A program made the translations under genes and the position numbers. A DNA stretch of 32,000 nucleotides from Breznakia sp. PF5-3 (GTDB taxonomy: Bacteria; Bacillota_I; Bacilli_A; Erysipelotrichales; Erysipelotrichaceae). The notes under the pieces are model-generated. The model was not told where the DNA came from and ran no database searches. It was given only the letters and a program-made list of their open reading frames with translations. The stretch is from NCBI RefSeq assembly GCF_029504745.1, contig NZ_JAQFIQ010000005.1:1-32000 (forward strand), in the 5' to 3' direction. Below are positions 80-10,721 of the stretch, one piece after another. The stretch's first letter is position 1. Each line of letters begins with the position of its first letter.

Positions 80-1594
80 CTAATAGTTTGTCTTTATTAT
101 AAAACGAACACTCGTTCCTTTATTCAATTCACTTTTAATATCAATATGAATATTGTGACGATCCGCAATTTCTTTCGCTATTGCCAATCCCAAGCCACTT
201 CCATTTGCATTGTTTTCATCTTTACTTGCATAAAAGTTCTTAAAAATATTAGGCAAGATGGAAGAATCAATACCACAACCATAATCCACCACTTCAATAA
301 TCTTATCATCTTTGTCTGCACGTACATCTATTTTACTAGCAACATTAGAAAACTTGATTGCATTATCGAAAACAATCATGAACATTTGACGAATTCGTGT
401 ATAATCTGCATGAATCATCCATACCTCATTAAGTTTATTATCATAGCATATCTCAATCTCTTTCTTCTTTGCAATCTGAGTGGATGATCGTAGTGCATCC
501 TCTACAACATCAAATACATTCACTTCGTTTTTCATAATCGAATAACTCGGATTTTGTAATCGTGATAGTTCTAATAGATCATTTACCATTCGCTCTAAAT
601 GCAAACTATCTGCCAGCATCTGTTGATAATACTCCTTGCGTTTATTCTCATCTTTTATAACACCATCATTTAATGCTTCTAAAGAACCACGAATGACTGT
701 AATTGGGGTTCTTAATTCATGTGAAATATTAGAAATGAAATCTTTTCTAGATTGTTCTAATATTTCAATATTCTTGGCTGATTCATCCAATTTTAAAGCT
801 AACATATCAATATGCTTTGCCAAAGAACCTAATTCATCATTTTGTTGGATATCTGTATGTGCTTTATAATCACCTTCCGCTAACTTTTGAGTGGTTGCCT
901 CCATCTTTTTTAAAGGATAAACAAAACGCTTCGCTAAAAGAATCGACAATCCGAAAATAAATAGGATAGCCACTCCAAAACTAATCATCAACACCGTAAT
1001 TCCTGAGCGTGATAATGCCTCAATTCCAGAGACTTCACTATGCAGTAATACCGCTGCAACAACATTATTATCTTTATCATATACAGGAGCTCCTGCTGTA
1101 ATTGTAGGATCTTCTAAAAGACCACTAAAATTATCACTCGTTACACTTTCTCCAGCAAAAACATCCTCTACCATCGTCTCAGCACTATCTGGCAAATCGG
1201 CATAACTAACTTCATGTTTTCCATGTCCTACTTGAATATTTTTGGTATCTCGATCAACAACCCAAACATTTCCTAATGTTGCATCATCAACAAATCGTAT
1301 GTATGCACCATATCCATTTTGTCCATTTTGTCCATTTTGACCTTGATTATTCGCTTGTCCTTTGCCATTCCCATGTCCATGAGAAGTTGTTTCATGCTCT
1401 TTCTCACTCTCTGCAAGTTCATAAGTACTCAATGTATCTGCAATATTTTCAGCGCGCTCTTTTAAATCATTTGAACTCGTATTTGTCGTTTGCGTCGAAA
1501 ACAAGTTTAAAAATAACAATCCTACAATGATTGCAAATAACAATAATAACCCTGTAAAGTATAAAACTAATTTTCTTGTAATCTTATGTTTCAT
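80..1594 (-). CDS. Sensor histidine kinase (TM, ~170-aa extracytoplasmic domain, TM, HAMP, HisKA, HATPase_c)
   Basis: Track ORF 80..1660. H-box FISNISHELRTPIT, N-box FDNAIKF, G1 DYGCGI, G2 GSGLGLAIAKE. Two hydrophobic helices (LVLYFTGLLLLFAIIVGLLFL and VLMISFGVAILFIFGLSILLA). Start trimmed to the ATG at 1594 (MKHKITRK), which overlaps the stop of the upstream response regulator by 11 nt. Confidence 0.9.
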   Translation of the reverse strand: MKHKITRKLVLYFTGLLLLFAIIVGLLFLNLFSTQTTNTSSNDLKERAENIADTLSTYELAESEKEHETTSHGHGNGKGQANNQGQNGQNGQNGYGAYIRFVDDATLGNVWVVDRDTKNIQVGHGKHEVSYADLPDSAETMVEDVFAGESVTSDNFSGLLEDPTITAGAPVYDKDNNVVAAVLLHSEVSGIEALSRSGITVLMISFGVAILFIFGLSILLAKRFVYPLKKMEATTQKLAEGDYKAHTDIQQNDELGSLAKHIDMLALKLDESAKNIEILEQSRKDFISNISHELRTPITVIRGSLEALNDGVIKDENKRKEYYQQMLADSLHLERMVNDLLELSRLQNPSYSIMKNEVNVFDVVEDALRSSTQIAKKKEIEICYDNKLNEVWMIHADYTRIRQMFMIVFDNAIKFSNVASKIDVRADKDDKIIEVVDYGCGIDSSILPNIFKNFYASKDENNANGSGLGLAIAKEIADRHNIHIDIKSELNKGTSVRFIIKTNY

Positions 1595-2282
1595 CTGTAA
1601 CTTCCTCAAATTTATAACCAACGCCCCAAATGGTAGTGATCTTCCAATGTTTATGTTCATAACGATCGAGCTTTGCTCGTAATCGTTTTATATGCGAATC
1701 TACCGTTCTACTATCACCATAGTAATCATATCCCCAAACGCTATCAAGTAGATTATCTCGTGTAAATACCTTATTTCTATTTGTTGCAAGAAGCCATAAC
1801 AATTCAATTTCTTTTTTGGTTAGCGAAAGCTTTTCTTCCGCAATCATAACTTCATAGCTTTCTAAGTCAATTTGCAAATTATCATATTGATAATGTTTTT
1901 GATCATCCTTTGATTCAAACGTATCCATGCGTCTTAAGATAGCTCTAACCCTTGCCATTACCTCATTTGGAGAAAAAGGTTTTACAATATAATCATCAGC
2001 ACCAATATCCAATCCCATAATCTTTTCAAAATCTTCCCCTCTTGCAGTAACCATAAGAATTGGTACATTTGAAGTTTTTCGAATTTTTCGACATACTTCA
2101 AATCCATCTAATTTTGGCATCATAACATCCAACAATAGAATATCTATGTTTTCTTCATCAAATATTTGTAATGCTGCTTCCCCATCATGGGCAAGAAAAA
2201 CAGTATATCCTTCTTGTAATGCATACTCACTTAAAATAGAAGTAATTTGTTTATTATCATCGGCTATTAATATCTGTGTCAT
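1584..2282 (-). CDS. OmpR/PhoB-family response regulator (receiver plus winged-helix DNA-binding domain)
   Basis: 232 aa. Receiver motifs ILIADD and LLLDVMMPKLDG (phospho-acceptor Asp), plus KPF. C-terminal wHTH RTVDSHIKRLRAKL ... TIWGVGYKF. GGAGG on the minus strand (2290..2294) lies 7 nt before the ATG. Confidence 0.92.
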   Translation of the reverse strand: MTQILIADDNKQITSILSEYALQEGYTVFLAHDGEAALQIFDEENIDILLLDVMMPKLDGFEVCRKIRKTSNVPILMVTARGEDFEKIMGLDIGADDYIVKPFSPNEVMARVRAILRRMDTFESKDDQKHYQYDNLQIDLESYEVMIAEEKLSLTKKEIELLWLLATNRNKVFTRDNLLDSVWGYDYYGDSRTVDSHIKRLRAKLDRYEHKHWKITTIWGVGYKFEEVTDET

Positions 2283-2380
2283 AAAGAAACCTCCTACCTT
2301 GTATAAGTATATCTTTAAATCTTGTCTTTTTTATGTCCTTTAATTTGACTTTATCATAAAAATAGAAAGAAAAAAACATC

Positions 2381-2396: not shown

Positions 2397-2437
2397 ATTT
2401 TAAACTATAGATGAAGATAACAAGAGGAGGAAATTTT

Positions 2438-2959
2438 ATGAAAAGAAAAATTATGATTATTGCATGTAGTTTTGTTTTAATTACTACGTTATTCGTACTT
2501 ATCACAAACAAAACTGAAGCAGCTACTGGAAAAGGTATTATGCAACATTGGGATTCTCAAACAAAAGAAAATCTAAAACAAAAAAAGCAAAGTACAAAAG
2601 CAGTGAAATCAAATGTTGCCCCTGATACAACAGTAGACACTTCAAATCAGCCTACACAAGCTGCTTGGGTTTGTCCAAACAATTGTAATGGTGGACCTTG
2701 TTCGAATGTAGATTGTCCAAATTACACAACTGCTTGGAGTTGCCCAAATAACTGTAATGGTGGATCTTGTTCGAATGCAGATTGTCCAAATTACACAGCT
2801 ACTTGGAACTGTCCAAACAACTGTAATGGCGGTGCTTGTTCAAATGCAAATTGTCCAAACTATGTGAATTCATCACAAACACCAAATGGAGGACAACACC
2901 ATGGTAATGATCGCCATAACCAATCAAATTCAGGTCGACACAAAAGTAGACATCACTAA
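2438..2959 (+). CDS. Secreted Cys-rich repeat protein: signal peptide, Lys/Thr/Gln-rich linker, 3 x 23-aa Cys4 repeats, His-rich C-terminal tail (no family recognised)
   Basis: Track ORF 2411..2959. Start moved to the ATG at 2438, 7 nt after AGAGGAGG (2423..2430). N-terminus MKRKIMIIACSFVLITTLFVLITNKTEA/A looks like a Sec signal with an AxA-type cleavage site. Repeats are AWVCPNNCNGGPCSNVDCPNYTT / AWSCPNNCNGGSCSNADCPNYTA / TWNCPNNCNGGACSNANCPNYVN. Tail is GGQHHGNDRHNQSNSGRHKSRHH. Followed by a strong hairpin terminator. Confidence 0.8.
   Translation: MKRKIMIIACSFVLITTLFVLITNKTEAATGKGIMQHWDSQTKENLKQKKQSTKAVKSNVAPDTTVDTSNQPTQAAWVCPNNCNGGPCSNVDCPNYTTAWSCPNNCNGGSCSNADCPNYTATWNCPNNCNGGACSNANCPNYVNSSQTPNGGQHHGNDRHNQSNSGRHKSRHH
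2663..2869 (+). repeat. Three in-frame tandem 69-bp repeats (2663..2731, 2732..2800, 2801..2869)
   Basis: Hand alignment gives 61/69 identical for repeat 1 vs 2 and 51/69 for repeat 2 vs 3. Several differences are synonymous changes in conserved Cys/Asn/Gly/Ser/Tyr codons (tgt/tgc, aac/aat, ggt/ggc, tcg/tca, tac/tat). Confidence 0.95.
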
Positions 2960-2986
2960 AAAATGCCATTAAAATGGCATTTTTTC
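2960..2986. terminator. Bidirectional intrinsic terminator shared by the convergent Cys-repeat gene and metA
   Basis: aaatgccat-taaa-atggcattt is a perfect 9-10 bp stem flanked by an A-run (2958..2963) and a T-run (2980..2986). The last codons and stop of metA (2969..) lie inside the hairpin. Confidence 0.75.
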
Positions 2987-5192: not shown

Positions 5193-5445
5193 AAAAAATC
5201 TTTCATCCAAATAGGACGAAAGATCGTGGTACCACCTATATTCGTTAATATTTCACAATATCAACCTCTTCAAGTACATGTTATATACTCTATCGCTGTA
5301 ACGAGCGAACACGTCACCTTCTAACATCATATGCTCGAAGGATGCTACTCCAAGACCATCTTCTACAATACTTCCTTTATTCCTTCTCACCTGCTGGAAC
5401 TCTCTTTAAAAGTAGATATCGTATACTCTTCTTTTCACAGTATTT
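5193..5445 (-). promoter_or_regulatory. T-box riboswitch leader controlling metY-metA (probably Met-tRNA responsive)
   Basis: On the minus strand: T-box core tataGGTGGTACCACGa (5225..5240). It is immediately followed by the terminator atctttcgtcc-tattt-ggatgaaagat plus TTTTTT (5193..5224). Upstream Stem-I-like elements are tgtgaaaagaagagta (GA/K-turn plus AGAGUA-like), aaagagag (AG bulge-like) and ttcc-agcaggtgagaa-ggaa (distal loop-like). Confidence 0.8.
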
Positions 5446-5458
5446 ATATTTGCTTATC

Positions 5459-5508: not shown

Positions 5509-6972
5509 TTACAATACTTTATCTAATGTCTTCTCTGATACCCATACGGATACGGAACCATCATTTACAGCAAAGTCTGCACAGCCATCTTCTTCAATTT
5601 CTAAACGTTCACTGCGGTTTCCCAAACAATCCACATAAATCTCACCAACATGTTGAGCCCCTATACTCATTCGTTTGACTCCACCTTTGGCATTCGTAAC
5701 AACTAATGCGACACCAGAATCTTCATGCTCTGTATCACCAAATCTGGTAAATCCAATGATATCAGGATGATCAAAATAGTCCATCTCAGGCCCATAAGCT
5801 AAGTATTTACGTACTTTTATCAATATCTCTAACTCTTTCCCCACAGGATCGATATCTTGCTTAGGGATCCCGAATAAGTCCCCAAAGAACACACAAGGAA
5901 TACCTTCATCCTTCAACAATATCAAAGCATATGCTTGTGGTTTAAACCAACCTTCAATCCATGATTCTAAGCTTTGTCCTGGTTGCGTATCATGATTATC
6001 AACAAAGGTAGTTGCCCAGTTGTGACGTGTCTGCAATAATGTATTCTCAAAAATATTACGCATATCAAAGCGTCCATCTGAATTTGATGCATGTTGTAAA
6101 TTAAAATGTAAAGGAACATCAAACAACGACATCATACCACCACAAGAATCCAAATAATTTTCTAACTTTTCTAAATCACCATTCCAATATTCACCAACCG
6201 CAAAAATATCTTTTCCAGCTTCAGAGCGACGATTTTTCAACCACTCAATAAAAAAGGAAAAACGAATATGCTTCACCGCATCTAGTCGATATCCATCAAC
6301 CTCACTCAACGCTTGATACCAATTCCCCCAACGATTCAATTGATCAACCGTTTCTGGATTATCCATATCAAGATCAGCTCCCATTAGATAATCAAAATTA
6401 CCATTTTCATTATCTACATTTTGCTCCCACTTCTTACCTTCAAATCCATAAATAGCTTCTTTTTGTGTGAATTCATCCCAATTTACACCTTTAAAGTTCT
6501 TCCAAGTCCAAACATAGTCATTATACATTCCATGTCTTTTAGGAAACGTAAATTTTGTCCATGCCTTTATTCTTTCAATACCACTCTCTTGTTGATTACG
6601 ATTAGTATCTAAAAACCGAATTGCATCCACTTCTTCAGTTTCATCTGCGCCAATAAAATGATCAAATACAATATCTGCATAAACTTCAAGTCCAACATCG
6701 TGCAATGCACGAATGGCATGCAAATATTGATCTTTCGTTCCATACTTTGTAGGAATAGCACCCTTTTGATCAAATTCTCCTAAATCATATAAATCATAAA
6801 CACCATATCCGACATCATGAATTCCTGCTGCCCCTTTATAAGCTGGAGGTAACCAAACACCATAAAAACCCATCTCTTTAAAACGGTGGGCATTTTCGAC
6901 AATATAATTCCAATGATTTGTATCTTCTGGCAAGTACCATTCAAAACCTTGCAAGATTGTTTTGTTCTCCAT
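5509..6972 (-). CDS. Cytoplasmic alpha-amylase, glycoside hydrolase family 13
   Basis: Track ORF 5509..7053. Start trimmed to the ATG at 6972 (MENKTILQGFEWYLP), preceded by AGGAG. GH13 regions are DIVFDH, GYRLDAVKHI (nucleophile Asp), FAVGEYW (acid/base Glu) and FVDNHD. No signal peptide. Confidence 0.9.
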   Translation of the reverse strand: MENKTILQGFEWYLPEDTNHWNYIVENAHRFKEMGFYGVWLPPAYKGAAGIHDVGYGVYDLYDLGEFDQKGAIPTKYGTKDQYLHAIRALHDVGLEVYADIVFDHFIGADETEEVDAIRFLDTNRNQQESGIERIKAWTKFTFPKRHGMYNDYVWTWKNFKGVNWDEFTQKEAIYGFEGKKWEQNVDNENGNFDYLMGADLDMDNPETVDQLNRWGNWYQALSEVDGYRLDAVKHIRFSFFIEWLKNRRSEAGKDIFAVGEYWNGDLEKLENYLDSCGGMMSLFDVPLHFNLQHASNSDGRFDMRNIFENTLLQTRHNWATTFVDNHDTQPGQSLESWIEGWFKPQAYALILLKDEGIPCVFFGDLFGIPKQDIDPVGKELEILIKVRKYLAYGPEMDYFDHPDIIGFTRFGDTEHEDSGVALVVTNAKGGVKRMSIGAQHVGEIYVDCLGNRSERLEIEEDGCADFAVNDGSVSVWVSEKTLDKVL

Positions 6973-7034
6973 ATATACTCCTATATTATTTCTATTATAC
7001 GTTTTTTTCATACTCACATGCAAACAATACGCGA

Positions 7035-7067
7035 CAAAAAAAGGACCTTCCATACTTGAAAAGTCCT
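7035..7067 (-). terminator. Intrinsic terminator after hydF
   Basis: Minus strand: aggacttt-tcaagtatg-gaaggtcct (8 bp with one mismatch) followed by TTTTTTT. Located 10 nt after the hydF stop. Confidence 0.65.
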
Positions 7068-7076
7068 AAATACTTA

Positions 7077-8261
7077 CTAAATACTAATCTTATCTAATAT
7101 ATTATTTAAGTATGCTATGGTAACTCCATAGTTTGTAATCGGTACTCCATTTTGCTTAGCTTGTTGTAAACGCGATAATACATATTTCCGATTAAACATA
7201 CAAGCTCCACAATGAATAATCAAATCATAAGCTTTTAAATCTATAGGAAATTGGTTTCCACTAACTACATCAATCTGTAGCTTATCACCAACCTTATTGC
7301 GTAATAACTTAGGAATTTTCACTCTGCCGATATCTTCGCTAAGTGGTGCGTGAGTACAAGCTTCCGCTATCAATACTTTTGATGTTTCCTGTAGATTATC
7401 AATTGCTTGTGCACCTTCTATAAATGCATTTATATCCCCTTTATAAGCAGCAAACAAAATAGAAAAAGAGGTTAATTTACTAGCTTTGGGTTTTCTTTCA
7501 TAAACTTTTTTAAATACTTGTGAATCACAAATAATCAAAGCTGGATCTTTCGCTAAAGATTGTAGTGCTTCCTCCATCTTATCCATTGTACAACTTACAA
7601 CGATACTCTTTTTATCAAGCAAGTCACGAATGGTTTGTACTTGTGGTAAAATCAATCGTCCTTTTGGTGCTTGAATATCTTGAGGCATCACCAATAATAC
7701 AAGATCATCTTCTCTTACCAATGTCTTAGTAATGCTTTCCATTCCATAATCTTCAGGCAATAAGCGCAGAATTGCTTTACGAATCACTTCTACATTGTTT
7801 TCTCTCGCATTGATAACAAACAGATTCTCATGTACAAAAGATATTAGTTTTTCTTTGATTTTTTCTGGACTATTATCTTTTGTTTCATTGATTATGGTAA
7901 TAATTTTAATATTCAAATCTTTAAAATATTGATACCATTTTTTTCCTTCTTCAATATCTTCATCTGCAAATACAACGATTGCAATATCACTTTTTGCAGC
8001 TGCTAATTTTGTTTTTTCTAATCGCTTTTCCCCTAATTGGGTAGCATCTCCATAACCAGCGGTATCAATAAACACAACCGGTCCAATACCATATAATTCC
8101 ATGGGCTTATAAATAGGATCGGTAGTAGTACCTTCTTGATTAGAAACAATGGAAACTGCTTGTTTTGTAAGACCATTTAATAAGGTTGATTTCCCACTAT
8201 TCACTTTTCCAAAAATACCAATATGCAAGCGATTGGCATTGGGTGTACTTTGTAAACTCAT
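7077..8261 (-). CDS. hydF: [FeFe]-hydrogenase H-cluster maturation GTPase HydF
   Basis: 394 aa. P-loop GKVNSGKSTLLN and G3 DTAGYGD. C-terminal FeS-binding motif CTHAP ... HCGACM (CxH...HCxxC). Lies in an operon with hydE and hydG. Confidence 0.9.
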   Translation of the reverse strand: MSLQSTPNANRLHIGIFGKVNSGKSTLLNGLTKQAVSIVSNQEGTTTDPIYKPMELYGIGPVVFIDTAGYGDATQLGEKRLEKTKLAAAKSDIAIVVFADEDIEEGKKWYQYFKDLNIKIITIINETKDNSPEKIKEKLISFVHENLFVINARENNVEVIRKAILRLLPEDYGMESITKTLVREDDLVLLVMPQDIQAPKGRLILPQVQTIRDLLDKKSIVVSCTMDKMEEALQSLAKDPALIICDSQVFKKVYERKPKASKLTSFSILFAAYKGDINAFIEGAQAIDNLQETSKVLIAEACTHAPLSEDIGRVKIPKLLRNKVGDKLQIDVVSGNQFPIDLKAYDLIIHCGACMFNRKYVLSRLQQAKQNGVPITNYGVTIAYLNNILDKISI

Positions 8262-8269
8262 ACTATCAC

Positions 8270-9682
8270 CTAGAAACGGAAATCCCGTTTTCCATCATGC
8301 AACTTCTTCAAATATTCTTCTGCAATTGCTTTTACTTTCTCACTTTTAATATTTGGTATCTCTTTACGAATTACTGCTTCACCCAAAATGCGAGTAGCAT
8401 CACTTGCATAATCTTCTAGATATTCCTTCAATGTCATCAAGGCGTTTGGTTGACATATATTCGCAATTTGTCCTGACTTCACCAAAGACATAAAACGATC
8501 TCCTGTACGTCCTTCACGATAACATGCAGTACAAAAACTTGGTATATAACCTAAGGACAACAACCAATGAACAACCTCGTCAAGCGTCCTTGTATCGCTT
8601 ACATCAAATTGTGAACTATTTTCTTCTTCTTTCTCTGCATATCCTCCAACACTAGTTGAAGAACCGCCACTAATTTGAGATATTCCCAATTTCAACACAC
8701 GTTCTCTTGATTTTTGTGTTTCTCTAGTGGAAATAATCATTCCTGTATAAGGGACAGCAATTCGAATAACGGCTGTAATCTTCGCAAAAATATCATCACT
8801 AATTGCATCTTCAAAATCTTCTGGATCAATATCGTCTGCTGCCCGAATTCGAGGTACACTTATCGTGTGTGGTCCCACACCATGTACCGCCTCTAAATGC
8901 TCCGCATGCATCAACAAGCCAACAAAATCATAACGATACATATTAAGTCCAAAAAGAACTCCAATTCCTACATCATCAATCCCAGCATCCATTGCACGAT
9001 CCATCGCTTCTGTATGGTAAGCATAATCATGCTTTGGTCCAGTTGGATGTAACATTTCATAATTTTCTTTATGATATGTTTCTTGGAATAGAATATACGT
9101 CCCAATCCCTGCATCTTTTAATTTCTTATAATTTTCTACTGTCGTAGCAGCAATATTTACATTCACTCTACGAATTGCTCCATTTTTATGTTGAATCGAA
9201 TAAATGGTTTTAATACTATCAAGAACGTATTCAATTGGTGACTCAATAGGATCCTCTCCTGTTTCTAATGCTAAACGTTTATGACCCATATCTTGTAATG
9301 CAATTACTTCTTTTCGTATTTCTTCTTGGGTCAACTTCTTTCTAGCAATCGTTTTATTCTTATAGTGATATGGACAATATACACAACCATTTACACAATA
9401 ATTAGACAAATACAATGGCGCAAACATCACAATTCGATTTCCATAAAATTTTTCTTTTATCTCCATTGCCAATTCTTCAATTTGTTTGTTTTCTTCTTCT
9501 AAATCACACTCTAAAAGAACCGCTGCCTCTTTATAAGAAAGCCCTTTACATTCCTTTGCCTTATTTAAAATCTCATTGATTAATTGCTTATTTGATTTAT
9601 TTTCTTGAGCATATGCTAGGGTTGCCAAGATTTCTTTATCATCAATAAATTCTGTTGCTTTTCTAGATCCTTTGTTATACAT
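8270..9682 (-). CDS. hydG: Radical SAM tyrosine lyase HydG ([FeFe]-hydrogenase maturase)
   Basis: Track ORF 8270..9730. Radical SAM motif CVNGCVYCPY. C-terminal auxiliary cluster motif CTAC-x22-C (FCTACYREGRTGDRF...NIC). Start trimmed to the ATG at 9682 (MYNKGSRK), preceded by AAGGAGAG, giving an 8-nt overlap with the hydE stop. Confidence 0.9.
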   Translation of the reverse strand: MYNKGSRKATEFIDDKEILATLAYAQENKSNKQLINEILNKAKECKGLSYKEAAVLLECDLEEENKQIEELAMEIKEKFYGNRIVMFAPLYLSNYCVNGCVYCPYHYKNKTIARKKLTQEEIRKEVIALQDMGHKRLALETGEDPIESPIEYVLDSIKTIYSIQHKNGAIRRVNVNIAATTVENYKKLKDAGIGTYILFQETYHKENYEMLHPTGPKHDYAYHTEAMDRAMDAGIDDVGIGVLFGLNMYRYDFVGLLMHAEHLEAVHGVGPHTISVPRIRAADDIDPEDFEDAISDDIFAKITAVIRIAVPYTGMIISTRETQKSRERVLKLGISQISGGSSTSVGGYAEKEEENSSQFDVSDTRTLDEVVHWLLSLGYIPSFCTACYREGRTGDRFMSLVKSGQIANICQPNALMTLKEYLEDYASDATRILGEAVIRKEIPNIKSEKVKAIAEEYLKKLHDGKRDFRF

Positions 9683-10721
9683 CTTTCTCTCCTTTAAAAT
9701 CTCCTCTATCATAGCTAATTGTATAGCCAATTTTTTCTAATCGTTTGTTTAAACTATCCAAGGATTCCGCTGCTTCATCATCCATGCAAGCTTTATCATT
9801 GTATAATTGATATTTTTTACGCATCGTAAGTGGTGATAAATTCGGCATCACCACATTTGCACCAGCTAAAATTCCTTGATCACGTCCTGTTGGATCAATC
9901 GTTGCCAATGCCGTAGTGGAAGGAATCAATGCTTGAGGGTGCATTAAACGCATAATCGCTAATAAAATTAACGTTGTATCCATACTCCCCTTTGCTTCTT
10001 CTTTAAACGGTGTATCCTCATGTGGTAAATATGGTCCGATTCCTATCATTTCAGGTGATAATTCCTCTAAAAACTTGATATCTTCAATCAAATTTTGGGT
10101 AGTTTGTTTAGGAGAACCAACCATGATACCACTACCTGTTTGAAAGCCTATTTCCTTTAAATCTTTTAGACACTGTACTCGTGTTTGAATATGCATCCCT
10201 TCTGGATGTAAAGATGCATAATGCTTTTCATTGATGGATTCATGTCGTAATAAATACCGATTCGCTCCTGCATGAAAATATTGCTCATACGTATGCTTAT
10301 CCTTTTCTCCCATACTTAACGTAATTGCACAATCTGGATACTTATCACGAATTGTACGGATGATATCACTCATCTCATTTACACGATAGCTATCATCTTC
10401 TCCCGATTGTAAGACAAATGTTCTAAAACCTAATTGATATCCTGTTTGACAACATTCTAATACATCTTCTTTATTTAAACGATAGCGTTCAACCTTTTCA
10501 TTATCACGGCGTATCCCACAATAATAGCAATTGTTCTTACAATAGTTTGAGAACTCTATCAACCCACGAATAAAAACTTTATTACCAAAGTTTTCTTGAG
10601 CTACAGCTCTTGCTTGTTCAAACAAATATGCTTTTTCATTATCACTTAACTTCGTTAATAGATATTCATATTCATAATCTTCTAGATGTCGCTTGTTTCT
10701 TAATTTATCTATAAGTTTCAT
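9675..10721 (-). CDS. hydE: Radical SAM maturase HydE ([FeFe]-hydrogenase maturation)
   Basis: 348 aa. CX3CX2C motif CKNNCYYCGIRR. BioB-like fold signature and operon context with hydG and hydF. Confidence 0.88.
   Translation of the reverse strand: MKLIDKLRNKRHLEDYEYEYLLTKLSDNEKAYLFEQARAVAQENFGNKVFIRGLIEFSNYCKNNCYYCGIRRDNEKVERYRLNKEDVLECCQTGYQLGFRTFVLQSGEDDSYRVNEMSDIIRTIRDKYPDCAITLSMGEKDKHTYEQYFHAGANRYLLRHESINEKHYASLHPEGMHIQTRVQCLKDLKEIGFQTGSGIMVGSPKQTTQNLIEDIKFLEELSPEMIGIGPYLPHEDTPFKEEAKGSMDTTLILLAIMRLMHPQALIPSTTALATIDPTGRDQGILAGANVVMPNLSPLTMRKKYQLYNDKACMDDEAAESLDSLNKRLEKIGYTISYDRGDFKGEKDV

Follow-up and report, generated by a model that had tools for sequence, protein, structure and literature searches.

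Accessory proteins that are encoded divergently from their own two-component system are well known in Proteobacteria, and SilE/PcoE-type proteins belong to metal-resistance loci under two-component control. The cpxP gene is divergent from cpxRA, and its product, which is among the most induced members of the Cpx regulon, inhibits CpxA via the periplasmic domain (PMC6737893). ZraP, the activity of which depends on zinc, represses its own system in a zinc-dependent manner (PMC10848872), and SilE is a small, exported, intrinsically disordered protein with its ligand residues spread along the chain (PMC5008109). Here, we report an analysis of a 32,000-nucleotide (nt) stretch of DNA from Breznakia sp. 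PF5-3 (contig NZ_JAQFIQ010000005.1, positions 1 to 32,000; hereafter the window), in which a small gene for an exported protein (the window protein), built from three tandem units of four cysteines each (Cys4 units), lies divergent from the genes for a response regulator and a sensor histidine kinase. Breznakia, a member of the Erysipelotrichaceae, is an insect-gut anaerobe. We found that the small gene completes a conserved signaling module of Firmicutes, the other two components of which are the regulator and a WalK-like HAMP kinase, and we favor, with middling confidence, a reading in which the window protein is a fast-evolving, CpxP/ZraP-like accessory or target of the adjacent two-component system, possibly metal-binding.

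Results

A conserved three-gene module in Firmicutes

To place the small gene in context, we compared 14 informative orthologous loci, including the window, and in 11 of them a gene for a signal-peptide-bearing protein of 118-191 amino acids (aa) lies directly divergent from the regulator gene (the window, L009, L098, L011, L016, L013, L014, L015, L017, L019, and L020). These 11 loci represent nine distinct lineages, L011/L016 and L019/L020 being near-duplicates. The neighboring genes on either side are entirely different at each locus, and the trio of small gene, regulator gene, and kinase gene therefore moves as a unit. The window protein has the features of the set: its gene is divergent from an orthologous regulator gene, with a 21-nt box between the two, and its product combines a signal peptide, a Cys motif of C-[DN]-G-x-G or C-x4-C-P-(x)-Y type, and a low-complexity Gly/Asn/His/Met tail. 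As regards the collection of loci, metagenomes were scanned with the kinase alignment by way of generic HisKA patterns, and ∼10 of the 80 loci so obtained were true orthologs, while a contig scan with exact kinase peptide patterns returned unrelated kinases only.

The proteins encoded at L009 (155 aa) and L098 (153 aa), which come from Breznakia-like relatives, are built like the window protein, with a signal peptide, a polar linker, a Cys4 unit, and an Asn/His tail, and each of them carries a single unit, (D/N)CNGSGNC(N/D)G(V/I)NCQSxxCPY. A BLASTP comparison of the window protein with the L009 protein gave E = 3e-7, with an alignment that is colinear over the full length; the linker of the window protein likewise aligns colinearly with those of both relatives, the tails of which are of like, Asn/His-rich character. 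The common unit pattern is C-x(3,5)-C-[ND]-G-x-x-C-x-[SN]-x-x-C-P-x(0,1)-Y, in which all four Cys are conserved, and these alignments indicate that the window protein and the L009 and L098 proteins are homologous. Cysteine conservation among homologs, which a preliminary description of the window made from its letters alone had named as a check, thus holds for the nearest ones.

Further out, the motifs in common are CDGTG, CPxxC[DN]G, and [DE]CP[NFY]Y, followed by Gly/Asn/His/Met-rich tails, and a looser sharing of motifs with the window protein extends to L014 (Frisingicoccus; ...NCPSVCDGTGNPDCPVSCDGTGNPDCPNPGSGNGNGYGCGSGQGNGHHGGG...), L013, L017, L011, and L019. Three of the counterparts score above the 25-bit cut-off of DUF2680 (PF10925, YckD-like), namely L013 (36.9 bits), L015 (26.6 bits), and L017 (31.5 bits), while the window protein gives no match to this family. 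In L013 and L017, the DUF2680 helices are followed by C-D-G-T-G (C-T-A-N-G in L015) and then by Gly/Asn/Met tails. The L019/L020 proteins, from the human gut, have LT/MT-x-x-Q helices, a motif also seen in L013, L015, and L017, and a His/Cys tail that ends in ...DECPFY; they fall in a cluster of 1,108 sequences, and another counterpart was seen on ∼250 contigs. An AxA-type N-terminus equivalent to the signal peptide of the window protein is present in all positional counterparts, and every one of them is annotated as hypothetical or as DUF2680 in every source. Cys is not constant in the set, with one residue among the last 60 in L013, one in L017, and 12 in the mature window protein. The number of Cys units changes as well: near-identical Frisingicoccus alleles have one versus two 12-aa CDGTGNPDCPxx units, and the Breznakia clade has one versus three Cys4 units, which means that copy-number change recurs and that Cys-unit copy number is evolutionarily labile. 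Taken as a group, the small proteins form a wider, unnamed set of secreted, Cys/Gly/Asn/His-rich partners of this two-component system.

In Frisingicoccus, a gene for a ZIP-family metal permease overlaps the stop codon of the kinase gene, starting at its final base (L014:5000-5779, +). At L013, a DUF5320 gene (L013:5138-5410, +; MPRRDGTGPMGQGAMTGRGKGIC...) stands directly 3′ of the kinase gene and is followed by genes for a NifX-like protein and a MinD/ParA-type Fe-S ATPase; the DUF5320 protein resembles the secreted partners in its DGTG motif and its Gly/Met-rich style but lacks a signal peptide.

The small gene is absent from three orthologous loci (L010, L018, and L021). Among these, L010 is syntenic with the window (metB-metA-gap-regulator-kinase) and retains, at L010:3929-4321, only 39 codons of the small gene (MKKIIFIICVILAFVIITQKQHHAYPLNVETFSENASLN), a remnant that aligns from the same start, next to an intact two-component system and a degenerate, partly palindromic box.

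The divergent intergenic region

The 21-nt direct-repeat box between the divergent genes is conserved. Its consensus, TRTGDCARAANNRTGTYTTTT, was drawn from seven loci, with L017, L019, L020, and L098 as independent confirmations, and it has a single match in the 32-kb window against 0.11 expected by chance. With zero to two mismatches and in the same orientation, the box lies 105-167 nt 5′ of the regulator ATG in all scored loci that carry the small gene (10/10); the eleventh such locus, L098, also carries it, and in the three loci lacking the small gene it has at least four mismatches. From these comparisons, the box is presumed to be a response-regulator binding site common to the two divergent promoters.

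Downstream of the box, on the side of the small gene, lies a −10-like hexamer, TAAACT, which is presumed to belong to the small-gene promoter. A generic promoter scan did not call this hexamer; our reading of the box-anchored alignment places −10-like hexamers at the same 9-nt spacing in L098 and L009 (TATACT), L015 (TATAGT), and L017 (TATTAT). On the regulator side, an extended −10 (TGnTAnnAT) lies 13-16 nt from the box. Such box/−10 geometry is expected, from what is known of pho boxes, where OmpR/PhoB-type activators act at two back-to-back promoters, and we infer that the arrangement seen here is that of an activator of this type serving both promoters. The box-anchored alignment also brought out a second conserved element (reverse complement GGACATAAAAAAGACAAG; consensus ACAYAAAAAAGACAA), which in most loci lies between the extended −10 and the start codon of the regulator operon; it is present in the window, L098, L013, and L017 and, more weakly, in L009, L014, and L015.

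The Cys4 repeat units

Tandem Repeats Finder detected a repeat of period 69 (3.0 copies, 86% matches, score 293) at 2653-2859, which in translation gives three units of 23 aa, each of the form W-x-C-P-N-N-C-N-G-G-x-C-S-N-x-x-C-P-N-Y-xxx. The spacing C-x3-C-x4-C-x4-C and the bracketing Trp and Tyr, both of which had been noted in the preliminary description, hold in all three units. Across them, 16 of the 23 positions have the same residue throughout, and of the 16 codons concerned, 8 show synonymous differences. The pairwise DNA identities are 60/69, 51/69, and 51/69, so that the second of the two values counted earlier by hand (51/69) stands, while the first (61/69) was one too high.

To evaluate selection on the motif, we simulated random placement of as many substitutions as were observed and counted the trials in which all 16 residues were kept. 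For units 1/2, such trials made up 0.025% of the total; for units 1/3 and for units 2/3, not one was seen in 200,000. Since random placement so rarely keeps the 16 residues, the Cys4 motif is under purifying selection after duplication, and the repeat is not a slippage artifact, which is in line with the earlier claim of purifying selection rather than recent slippage.

The gene and its product

The 173-aa product is identical to NCBI MDF9824102.1 (Breznakia sp. PF5-3), which is annotated as a hypothetical protein, and the same protein is present in three more Breznakia accessions. An in-frame ATG at 2411 lengthens the mechanical open reading frame (ORF) to 182 aa (extension 2411-2437, +); because this upstream ATG lacks a ribosome-binding site, and because the extension itself holds the ribosome-binding site of the ATG at 2438, we take 2438 as the start. 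On the 3′ side, a bidirectional intrinsic terminator hairpin is common to the small gene and the convergent metA, with a fold energy of −12.2 kcal/mol (z = −5.0; 0/200 shuffles fold as well). With its own ribosome-binding site and terminator (Table 1), the small gene is real, self-contained, and monocistronic. The convergent operon, which encodes an O-acetylhomoserine sulfhydrylase and MetA, is preceded by a T-box leader (5209-5447, −; RF00230, 108 bits, E = 2.6e-23).

The N-terminus has the features of a Sec-type signal peptide, including a hydrophobic core of 19 residues (residues 5-23) with a grand average of hydropathicity (GRAVY) of 2.69; the call is based on sequence features only. The export features, together with the ORF and the repeat finding, support the earlier view that the protein is exported and has three conserved Cys4 units. 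A lipoprotein reading of I-I-A-C (residues 7-10) was rejected, this Cys being just five residues into the hydrophobic core and absent from the homologs, and Fe-S cluster binding, which the C...C-P ending of the units might suggest, was rejected because the signal is of Sec rather than Tat type.

From A29 on, the mature protein has 145 residues (∼15.5 kDa, isoelectric point 8.5, GRAVY −1.21), of which 16 are hydrophobic, and 57% are N, Q, S, T, G, or P. A single-sequence AlphaFold model was uninformative, with a mean predicted local distance difference test score (pLDDT) of 45.8 and ∼35 over the repeats; the linker is likewise below 50 except for a short helix at residues 38-45. The mature protein is thus largely disordered and without a hydrophobic core, and, given the few hydrophobic residues and the low pLDDT over the repeats, any fold depends on cross-links, whether by metal or by disulfides.

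Of the 13 Cys of the precursor, one lies in the signal peptide, so that the figure of twelve given in the preliminary description is right for the mature protein (12/145 residues, and 12/69 within the repeats) but not for the precursor. Its remark that so many Cys are unusual for an exported protein of a low-GC Gram-positive organism is fair in general, although the published finding of cysteine exclusion applies to aerobic Firmicutes (PMC2823432) and Breznakia is an anaerobe. The basic C-terminal tail has six His in 23 aa rather than the seven first counted, the seventh being residue 37.

Table 1. Features of the small gene, the intergenic region, and the two-component system in the window.
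Feature	Position	Strand	Basis or remarks
Sensor histidine kinase gene, 504 aa	80..1594	−	transmembrane helix, extracytoplasmic PDC-like domain, transmembrane helix, HAMP, HisKA, HATPase (Pfam)
Disordered low-complexity sensor insert of the kinase, aa 67-93, HGHGNGKGQANNQGQNGQNGQNG	1316..1396	−	pLDDT <50
OmpR-family response regulator gene	1584..2282	−	Pfam Response_reg and Trans_reg_C; divergent from the small gene
Second conserved element, CTTGTCTTTTTTATGTCC	2321-2338	+	box-anchored alignment
21-nt direct-repeat box, TGTGACAGAATGATGTTTTTT (presumed regulator site)	2371-2391	−	conserved; between the divergent genes
−10-like hexamer, TAAACT (presumed small-gene promoter)	2401-2406	+	9 nt downstream of the box
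Ribosome-binding site, AGGAGG	2425-2430	+	7 nt 5′ of the ATG at 2438
Coding sequence of the 173-aa secreted Cys4-repeat protein	2438..2959	+	ORF list and sequence; stop codon 2957-2959
Signal peptide, aa 1-28	2438..2521	+	n-region MKRK, hydrophobic core, T-E-A/A at residues 26-29
Polar K/Q/T/S-rich linker, aa 29-76	2522..2665	+	translation
Cys4 unit 1, aa 77-99, WVCPNNCNGGPCSNVDCPNYTTA	2666..2734	+	repeat finding, translation
Cys4 unit 2, aa 100-122, WSCPNNCNGGSCSNADCPNYTAT	2735..2803	+	repeat finding, translation
Cys4 unit 3, aa 123-145, WNCPNNCNGGACSNANCPNYVNS	2804..2872	+	repeat finding, translation
His-rich basic tail, GGQHHGNDRHNQSNSGRHKSRHH	2888..2956	+	6 His in 23 aa
Bidirectional intrinsic terminator hairpin	2958..2985	.	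12-bp stem, A-tract and T-tract; common to the small gene and convergent metA

Database searches and an environmental cysteine repeat

Pfam and NCBIfam scans of the window protein and of the repeat region alone returned noise only (in Pfam, at E ≤ 1, hmmscan with the full 173-aa sequence gave SPRR2 and DNA_gyraseB and nothing else, both noise), and PDB sequence searches with the window protein, the repeat profile, and two counterparts gave nothing significant. The statement in the preliminary description that no family could be named for the protein is therefore borne out, and the profile searches gave no confident match to a characterized domain family that would overturn it. An Evasin-1 match in the PDB search (E = 0.12) is at chance level, and a resemblance to EGF or thrombospondin-like domains has no profile match in its support.

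Searches for relatives of the whole protein gave a similar picture. A word-indexed search of 5.8 billion proteins returned only the window protein, including a copy of 99% identity that lies on a 2.2-kb SRR29082279 contig and has four nt differences in 801 nt; the single aa change of this allele, S to P, falls at a variable x position of unit 2. When 1.84 billion cluster representatives were searched exhaustively with phmmer, there was one weak match (P0008) plus two spurious repeats, and the search missed the true homologs at L009 and L098, both of which were found through synteny alone. The window protein is unannotated, confined to a narrow Breznakia clade, and in no named family. As for the counterpart families, we found nothing functional in the literature on DUF2680, YckD, or DUF5320, and the titles and abstracts of the DUF2680 papers do not address function.

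Several known kinds of cysteine-rich protein were considered and rejected. A metallothionein is not indicated, as the spacings are C-x3-C and C-x4-C only, with no Cys-x-Cys or Cys-Cys clusters, and the protein has a Sec signal and no Pfam match. For a zinc ribbon or rubredoxin knuckle, the nearest resemblance is C-P-x-x-C-x-G-G, with no CxxC and no Pfam or PDB match. A precursor of a ribosomally synthesized and post-translationally modified peptide (SCIFF/ranthipeptide or sactipeptide) was rejected in view of the Sec-type N-terminus, the monocistronic gene, and the lack of an adjacent maturase; the nearest radical-SAM genes, 5-8 kb away, pass the equivalog cut-offs of HydG (922 bits) and HydE (562 bits). 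These two belong to a complete [FeFe]-hydrogenase maturation set (hydF, hydG, and hydE; 7077-10721, −), which adjoins an alpha-amylase gene (5509-7053).

The one weak match, P0008 (L008:2801-4405; JGI 3300017527), is a 534-aa, membrane-anchored environmental protein with 23-aa units (CPEDCAEAVCGNSRCDAGETTLN) in tandem, five or six in number; its gene adjoins a Peptidase_S74 gene, and P0008 matched no family in Pfam or NCBIfam. Its period of 23 aa and its spacing C-x3-C-x4-C-x4-C-x8 are identical to those of the window units, C-P-x-[DN]-C and C-[GS]-[ND]-x-x-C are common to both, and an ungapped comparison over three units gives 34-38% identity with all 12 Cys aligned. However, P0008-type units have acidic GE(T) linkers where the window units have PNY..W, and they lack a two-component system context. 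The phmmer E value of P0008 is 1.7e-4, and clearly unrelated leucine-rich and junk repeats reach 2.9e-4 in the same search. A profile of the window and P0008 units retrieved three short CGDGxC/CPxDC fragments but no bridge sequences; the CGDGxC...CPxDC motif occurs in short, secreted-looking proteins, the environmental secreted proteins that carry it include P0011-P0013, and our searches found no family model or structure for proteins of this kind. We regard the P0008 link as a resemblance at noise level, and a relationship with the window protein as unproven.

The response regulator and the sensor kinase

The best NCBIfam matches of the regulator and the kinase are YycF and WalK, respectively, both far below the cut-offs. 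The kinase has 3,082 relatives at E ≤ 1e-30, and the best 120 of these are nearly all full-length, with 43-52% identity; these 120 come from Lachnospiraceae, Sedimentibacter, Trichococcus, a Breznakia metagenome-assembled genome, and other Firmicutes, in which full-length orthologs are spread widely at 44-52% identity. An AlphaFold model of kinase residues 1-236, built with 18 orthologs (mean pLDDT 73.5), predicts a first transmembrane helix, a long helix, a PDC/PAS-like alpha/beta domain, and a second transmembrane helix. In a fold search with this sensor model, the best PDB match was WalK (9a5d_A, TMq 0.61), along with 4ywz and 7dud, followed by generic Cache/PDC domains. Directly 3′ of the kinase gene in another Breznakia sp. 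assembly, GCA_029504775.1, and thus beyond position 1 of the window, lies an IS110-family transposase gene at the contig end (L101:8699-9943).

The disordered insert of the sensor is hypervariable and G/M/H/N/Q-rich in every kinase ortholog aligned, as illustrated by GMGMGMGMGGMYMQ in Sedimentibacter and GHGHGKGAGSG in Frisingicoccus. In a single case, the L018 kinase (L018:1486-3054, +), the insert itself is Cys-rich (ECGSGMRCGNGVGCGSGNGARCGMGG); the L018 locus has neither a divergent small gene nor a box, and it looks as if the Cys motif were built into the sensor.

Discussion

Under the accessory-protein reading, the phosphorylated regulator would bind the 21-nt box between the back-to-back promoters and activate the small gene as well as its own operon. 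After export, the product would stay near the membrane or wall, where its three Cys4 units and His tail, with the thiols kept reduced in the anoxic gut, would bind metal ions of thiophilic or borderline type, such as Zn, Cu, Ni, Co, or Cd. Metal binding would buffer the stimulus, and the secreted protein would probably feed back on the extracytoplasmic domain of the kinase, as CpxP does on CpxA and ZraP on ZraS. We infer both the regulation of the small gene by the two-component system and the feedback on the kinase. Metal binding, probably through the twelve thiolates and the six tail imidazoles, is our best-supported guess, because (i) the protein has no hydrophobic core, (ii) the ZIP permease gene is translationally coupled to the kinase gene in one lineage, and (iii) the kinase inserts are Met/His-rich. 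The setting of the gene, divergent from the genes of a two-component system, had escaped the preliminary description, and it narrows the three options offered there: metal binding is the most plausible of them, though unproven, a glycan- or ligand-binding knot is without support, and a peptide precursor is unlikely.

A number of observations weigh against the accessory-protein reading, and in particular against its metal component. The sensor fold of the kinase is WalK-like or generic PDC-Cache rather than that of a known metal sensor, and the fold search of the sensor model yielded no CusS-like or other metal-sensor fold; the regulator, the best match of which is YycF/WalR-like, scores 173.6 bits against the heavy-metal regulator subfamily, the cut-off of which is 279. 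There is no metal transporter within the window, and the ZIP permease of Frisingicoccus is the only explicit metal gene in any module examined. Because the number of Cys varies across the counterparts, Cys chemistry is not a universal function of the module, and the decay of the gene in L010 beside an intact two-component system means that the small protein is labile and dispensable for kinase function. The parallel with ZraP and CpxP is one of analogy, not homology. Finally, the composition of the kinase insert co-varies with that of the partner's C-terminal 60 residues (n = 9 pairs; mean centered cosine 0.40, permutation P 0.002), a correlation that is confounded by genomic GC content and by the relatedness of the loci and is a hint only.

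A more far-reaching proposal, which we put forward tentatively and consider unlikely, is that the Cys4 unit is a new extracytoplasmic metal-binding mini-domain that forms a co-evolving sensing pair with the disordered insert of the kinase, the two segments sharing, competing for, or being bridged by an ion. If this were true, perception of the signal across this widespread two-component family of Firmicutes would rely not on a folded pocket for a ligand but on a hypervariable disordered loop and a secreted decoy that matches it.

Among the alternatives, we consider it unlikely that the units form a disulfide-stabilized rod or mini-knot, with two disulfides per unit, that binds the wall, a glycan, or a host/insect-gut ligand, the two-component system being incidental or only regulatory. 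The four Cys of each unit are even in number and fixed in spacing, the conserved Trp and Tyr could pack between units, and the tandem 23-aa units of P0008 have exactly the same Cys spacing and period; moreover, CGDGxC...CPxDC occurs in other short secreted-looking proteins, in which a structural role is plausible. However, the P0008 link is at noise level, no structural template or family was found, and the first loop of the closest homologs (C-x5-C versus C-x3-C) is hard to square with a rigid knot. Furthermore, Breznakia is a gut anaerobe, with no Dsb-type oxidase evident in the window, and a disulfide module leaves unexplained both the two-component association and the His-rich tail. The dense, exposed Cys and the absence of a hydrophobic core could also serve an extracytoplasmic thiol/redox or electrophile co-sensor or scavenger, in which quinones, or oxidants at the gut wall such as O2 or H2O2, would oxidize the Cys4 units, alter the interaction with the sensor domain of the kinase, and thereby signal redox stress in the envelope. 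Insect guts have steep oxygen gradients, and the inserts of orthologous kinases are rich in oxidizable Met, that of L018 being Cys-rich. While sequence alone does not separate this redox reading from metal binding, many counterparts have one to three Cys and no Met-rich tail, and the operons examined contain no thioredoxin-like or Msr gene, which makes a redox role, in our view, quite improbable.

Tandem, near-identical units after a secretion signal and beside a two-component system also bear a superficial resemblance to multi-copy pheromone precursors, in which case proteolysis would release the three units as an autoinducer sensed by the adjacent kinase. This is very doubtful, as there are no conserved cleavage sites between the units and no dedicated protease or exporter adjacent to the gene, and the radical-SAM genes of the window are HydE and HydG; relatives at the same locus have one unit, different Gly-rich sequences, or DUF2680 helices, and the kinase has a single WalK-type PDC-like domain rather than the polytopic architecture of a peptide receptor. 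Finally, the gene might be a near-neutral, lineage-specific orphan with no specific function, the repeat expansion being tolerated junk, in keeping with its low-complexity sequence, its decay in the syntenic L010, and the finding that, beyond four Breznakia assemblies, this very protein occurs on one SRA contig only. We find this hardly credible in the face of the strong purifying selection that the 16 motif residues have been under since duplication and of the conservation in relatives of the position, the signal peptide, the Cys unit, and the operator-like box.

The module itself is the more valuable finding: it is widespread in gut Firmicutes, including abundant human-gut Lachnospiraceae, we found no literature on it, and in it a kinase with a disordered, hypervariable insert in its sensor goes together with a secreted protein that evolves fast and resembles the insert in composition. 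Should the CpxP/ZraP-like reading be true, it would provide the first functional assignment for DUF2680 and for several hypothetical secreted proteins, as well as a new accessory-protein paradigm in Gram-positive envelope or metal stress signaling; the Cys4 repeat, with its fast copy-number evolution, would then be tractable for the study of extracellular thiolate-metal chemistry in anaerobes.

Comparison with known systems

The polar linker of the window protein stands where the DUF2680-type counterparts have their DUF2680 helices. With SilE/PcoE-type sponges, the window protein shares the character of a small, exported, disordered protein with dispersed ligand residues; however, SilE uses His and Met and no Cys, has no sequence similarity to the window protein, and belongs to Gram-negative resistance operons with efflux pumps.

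ZraP is encoded in the same divergent layout, which we confirmed for zraP-zraSR in MG1655. Its regulator, ZraR, is of the NtrC/sigma-54 type, whereas that of the window is of the OmpR type, and the window protein lacks the helical LTxxQ body: it has no LTXXQ motif and no helical hairpin, its sole predicted helix outside the signal peptide being the one at residues 38-45 (AlphaFold). An hmmscan at E ≤ 1 found neither LTXXQ (PF07813) nor Metal_resist (PF13801) in the window protein, while the same procedure assigned E. coli ZraP to Metal_resist at 4.8e-23; homology of the DUF2680-type counterparts to ZraP was also rejected, as hhalign aligned the signal peptides only. What ZraP does share is the signal peptide and a Gly-rich C-terminal tail with Cys, His, and Met (GAGMGMGYGGCGGGGHMGMGHW), in the style of the Firmicute counterparts.

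CpxP, too, differs in that it has no sequence or profile similarity to the window protein, which is built of Cys4 repeats, and the window host is Gram-positive and without a periplasm. In its layout and proposed logic, however, the locus resembles cpxP-cpxRA: a small exported protein is encoded divergently from an operon of an OmpR-type regulator followed by a HAMP kinase, a site for the regulator is predicted in the common intergenic region, and, as proposed here, the strongest member of the regulon would damp the kinase through its extracytoplasmic domain.

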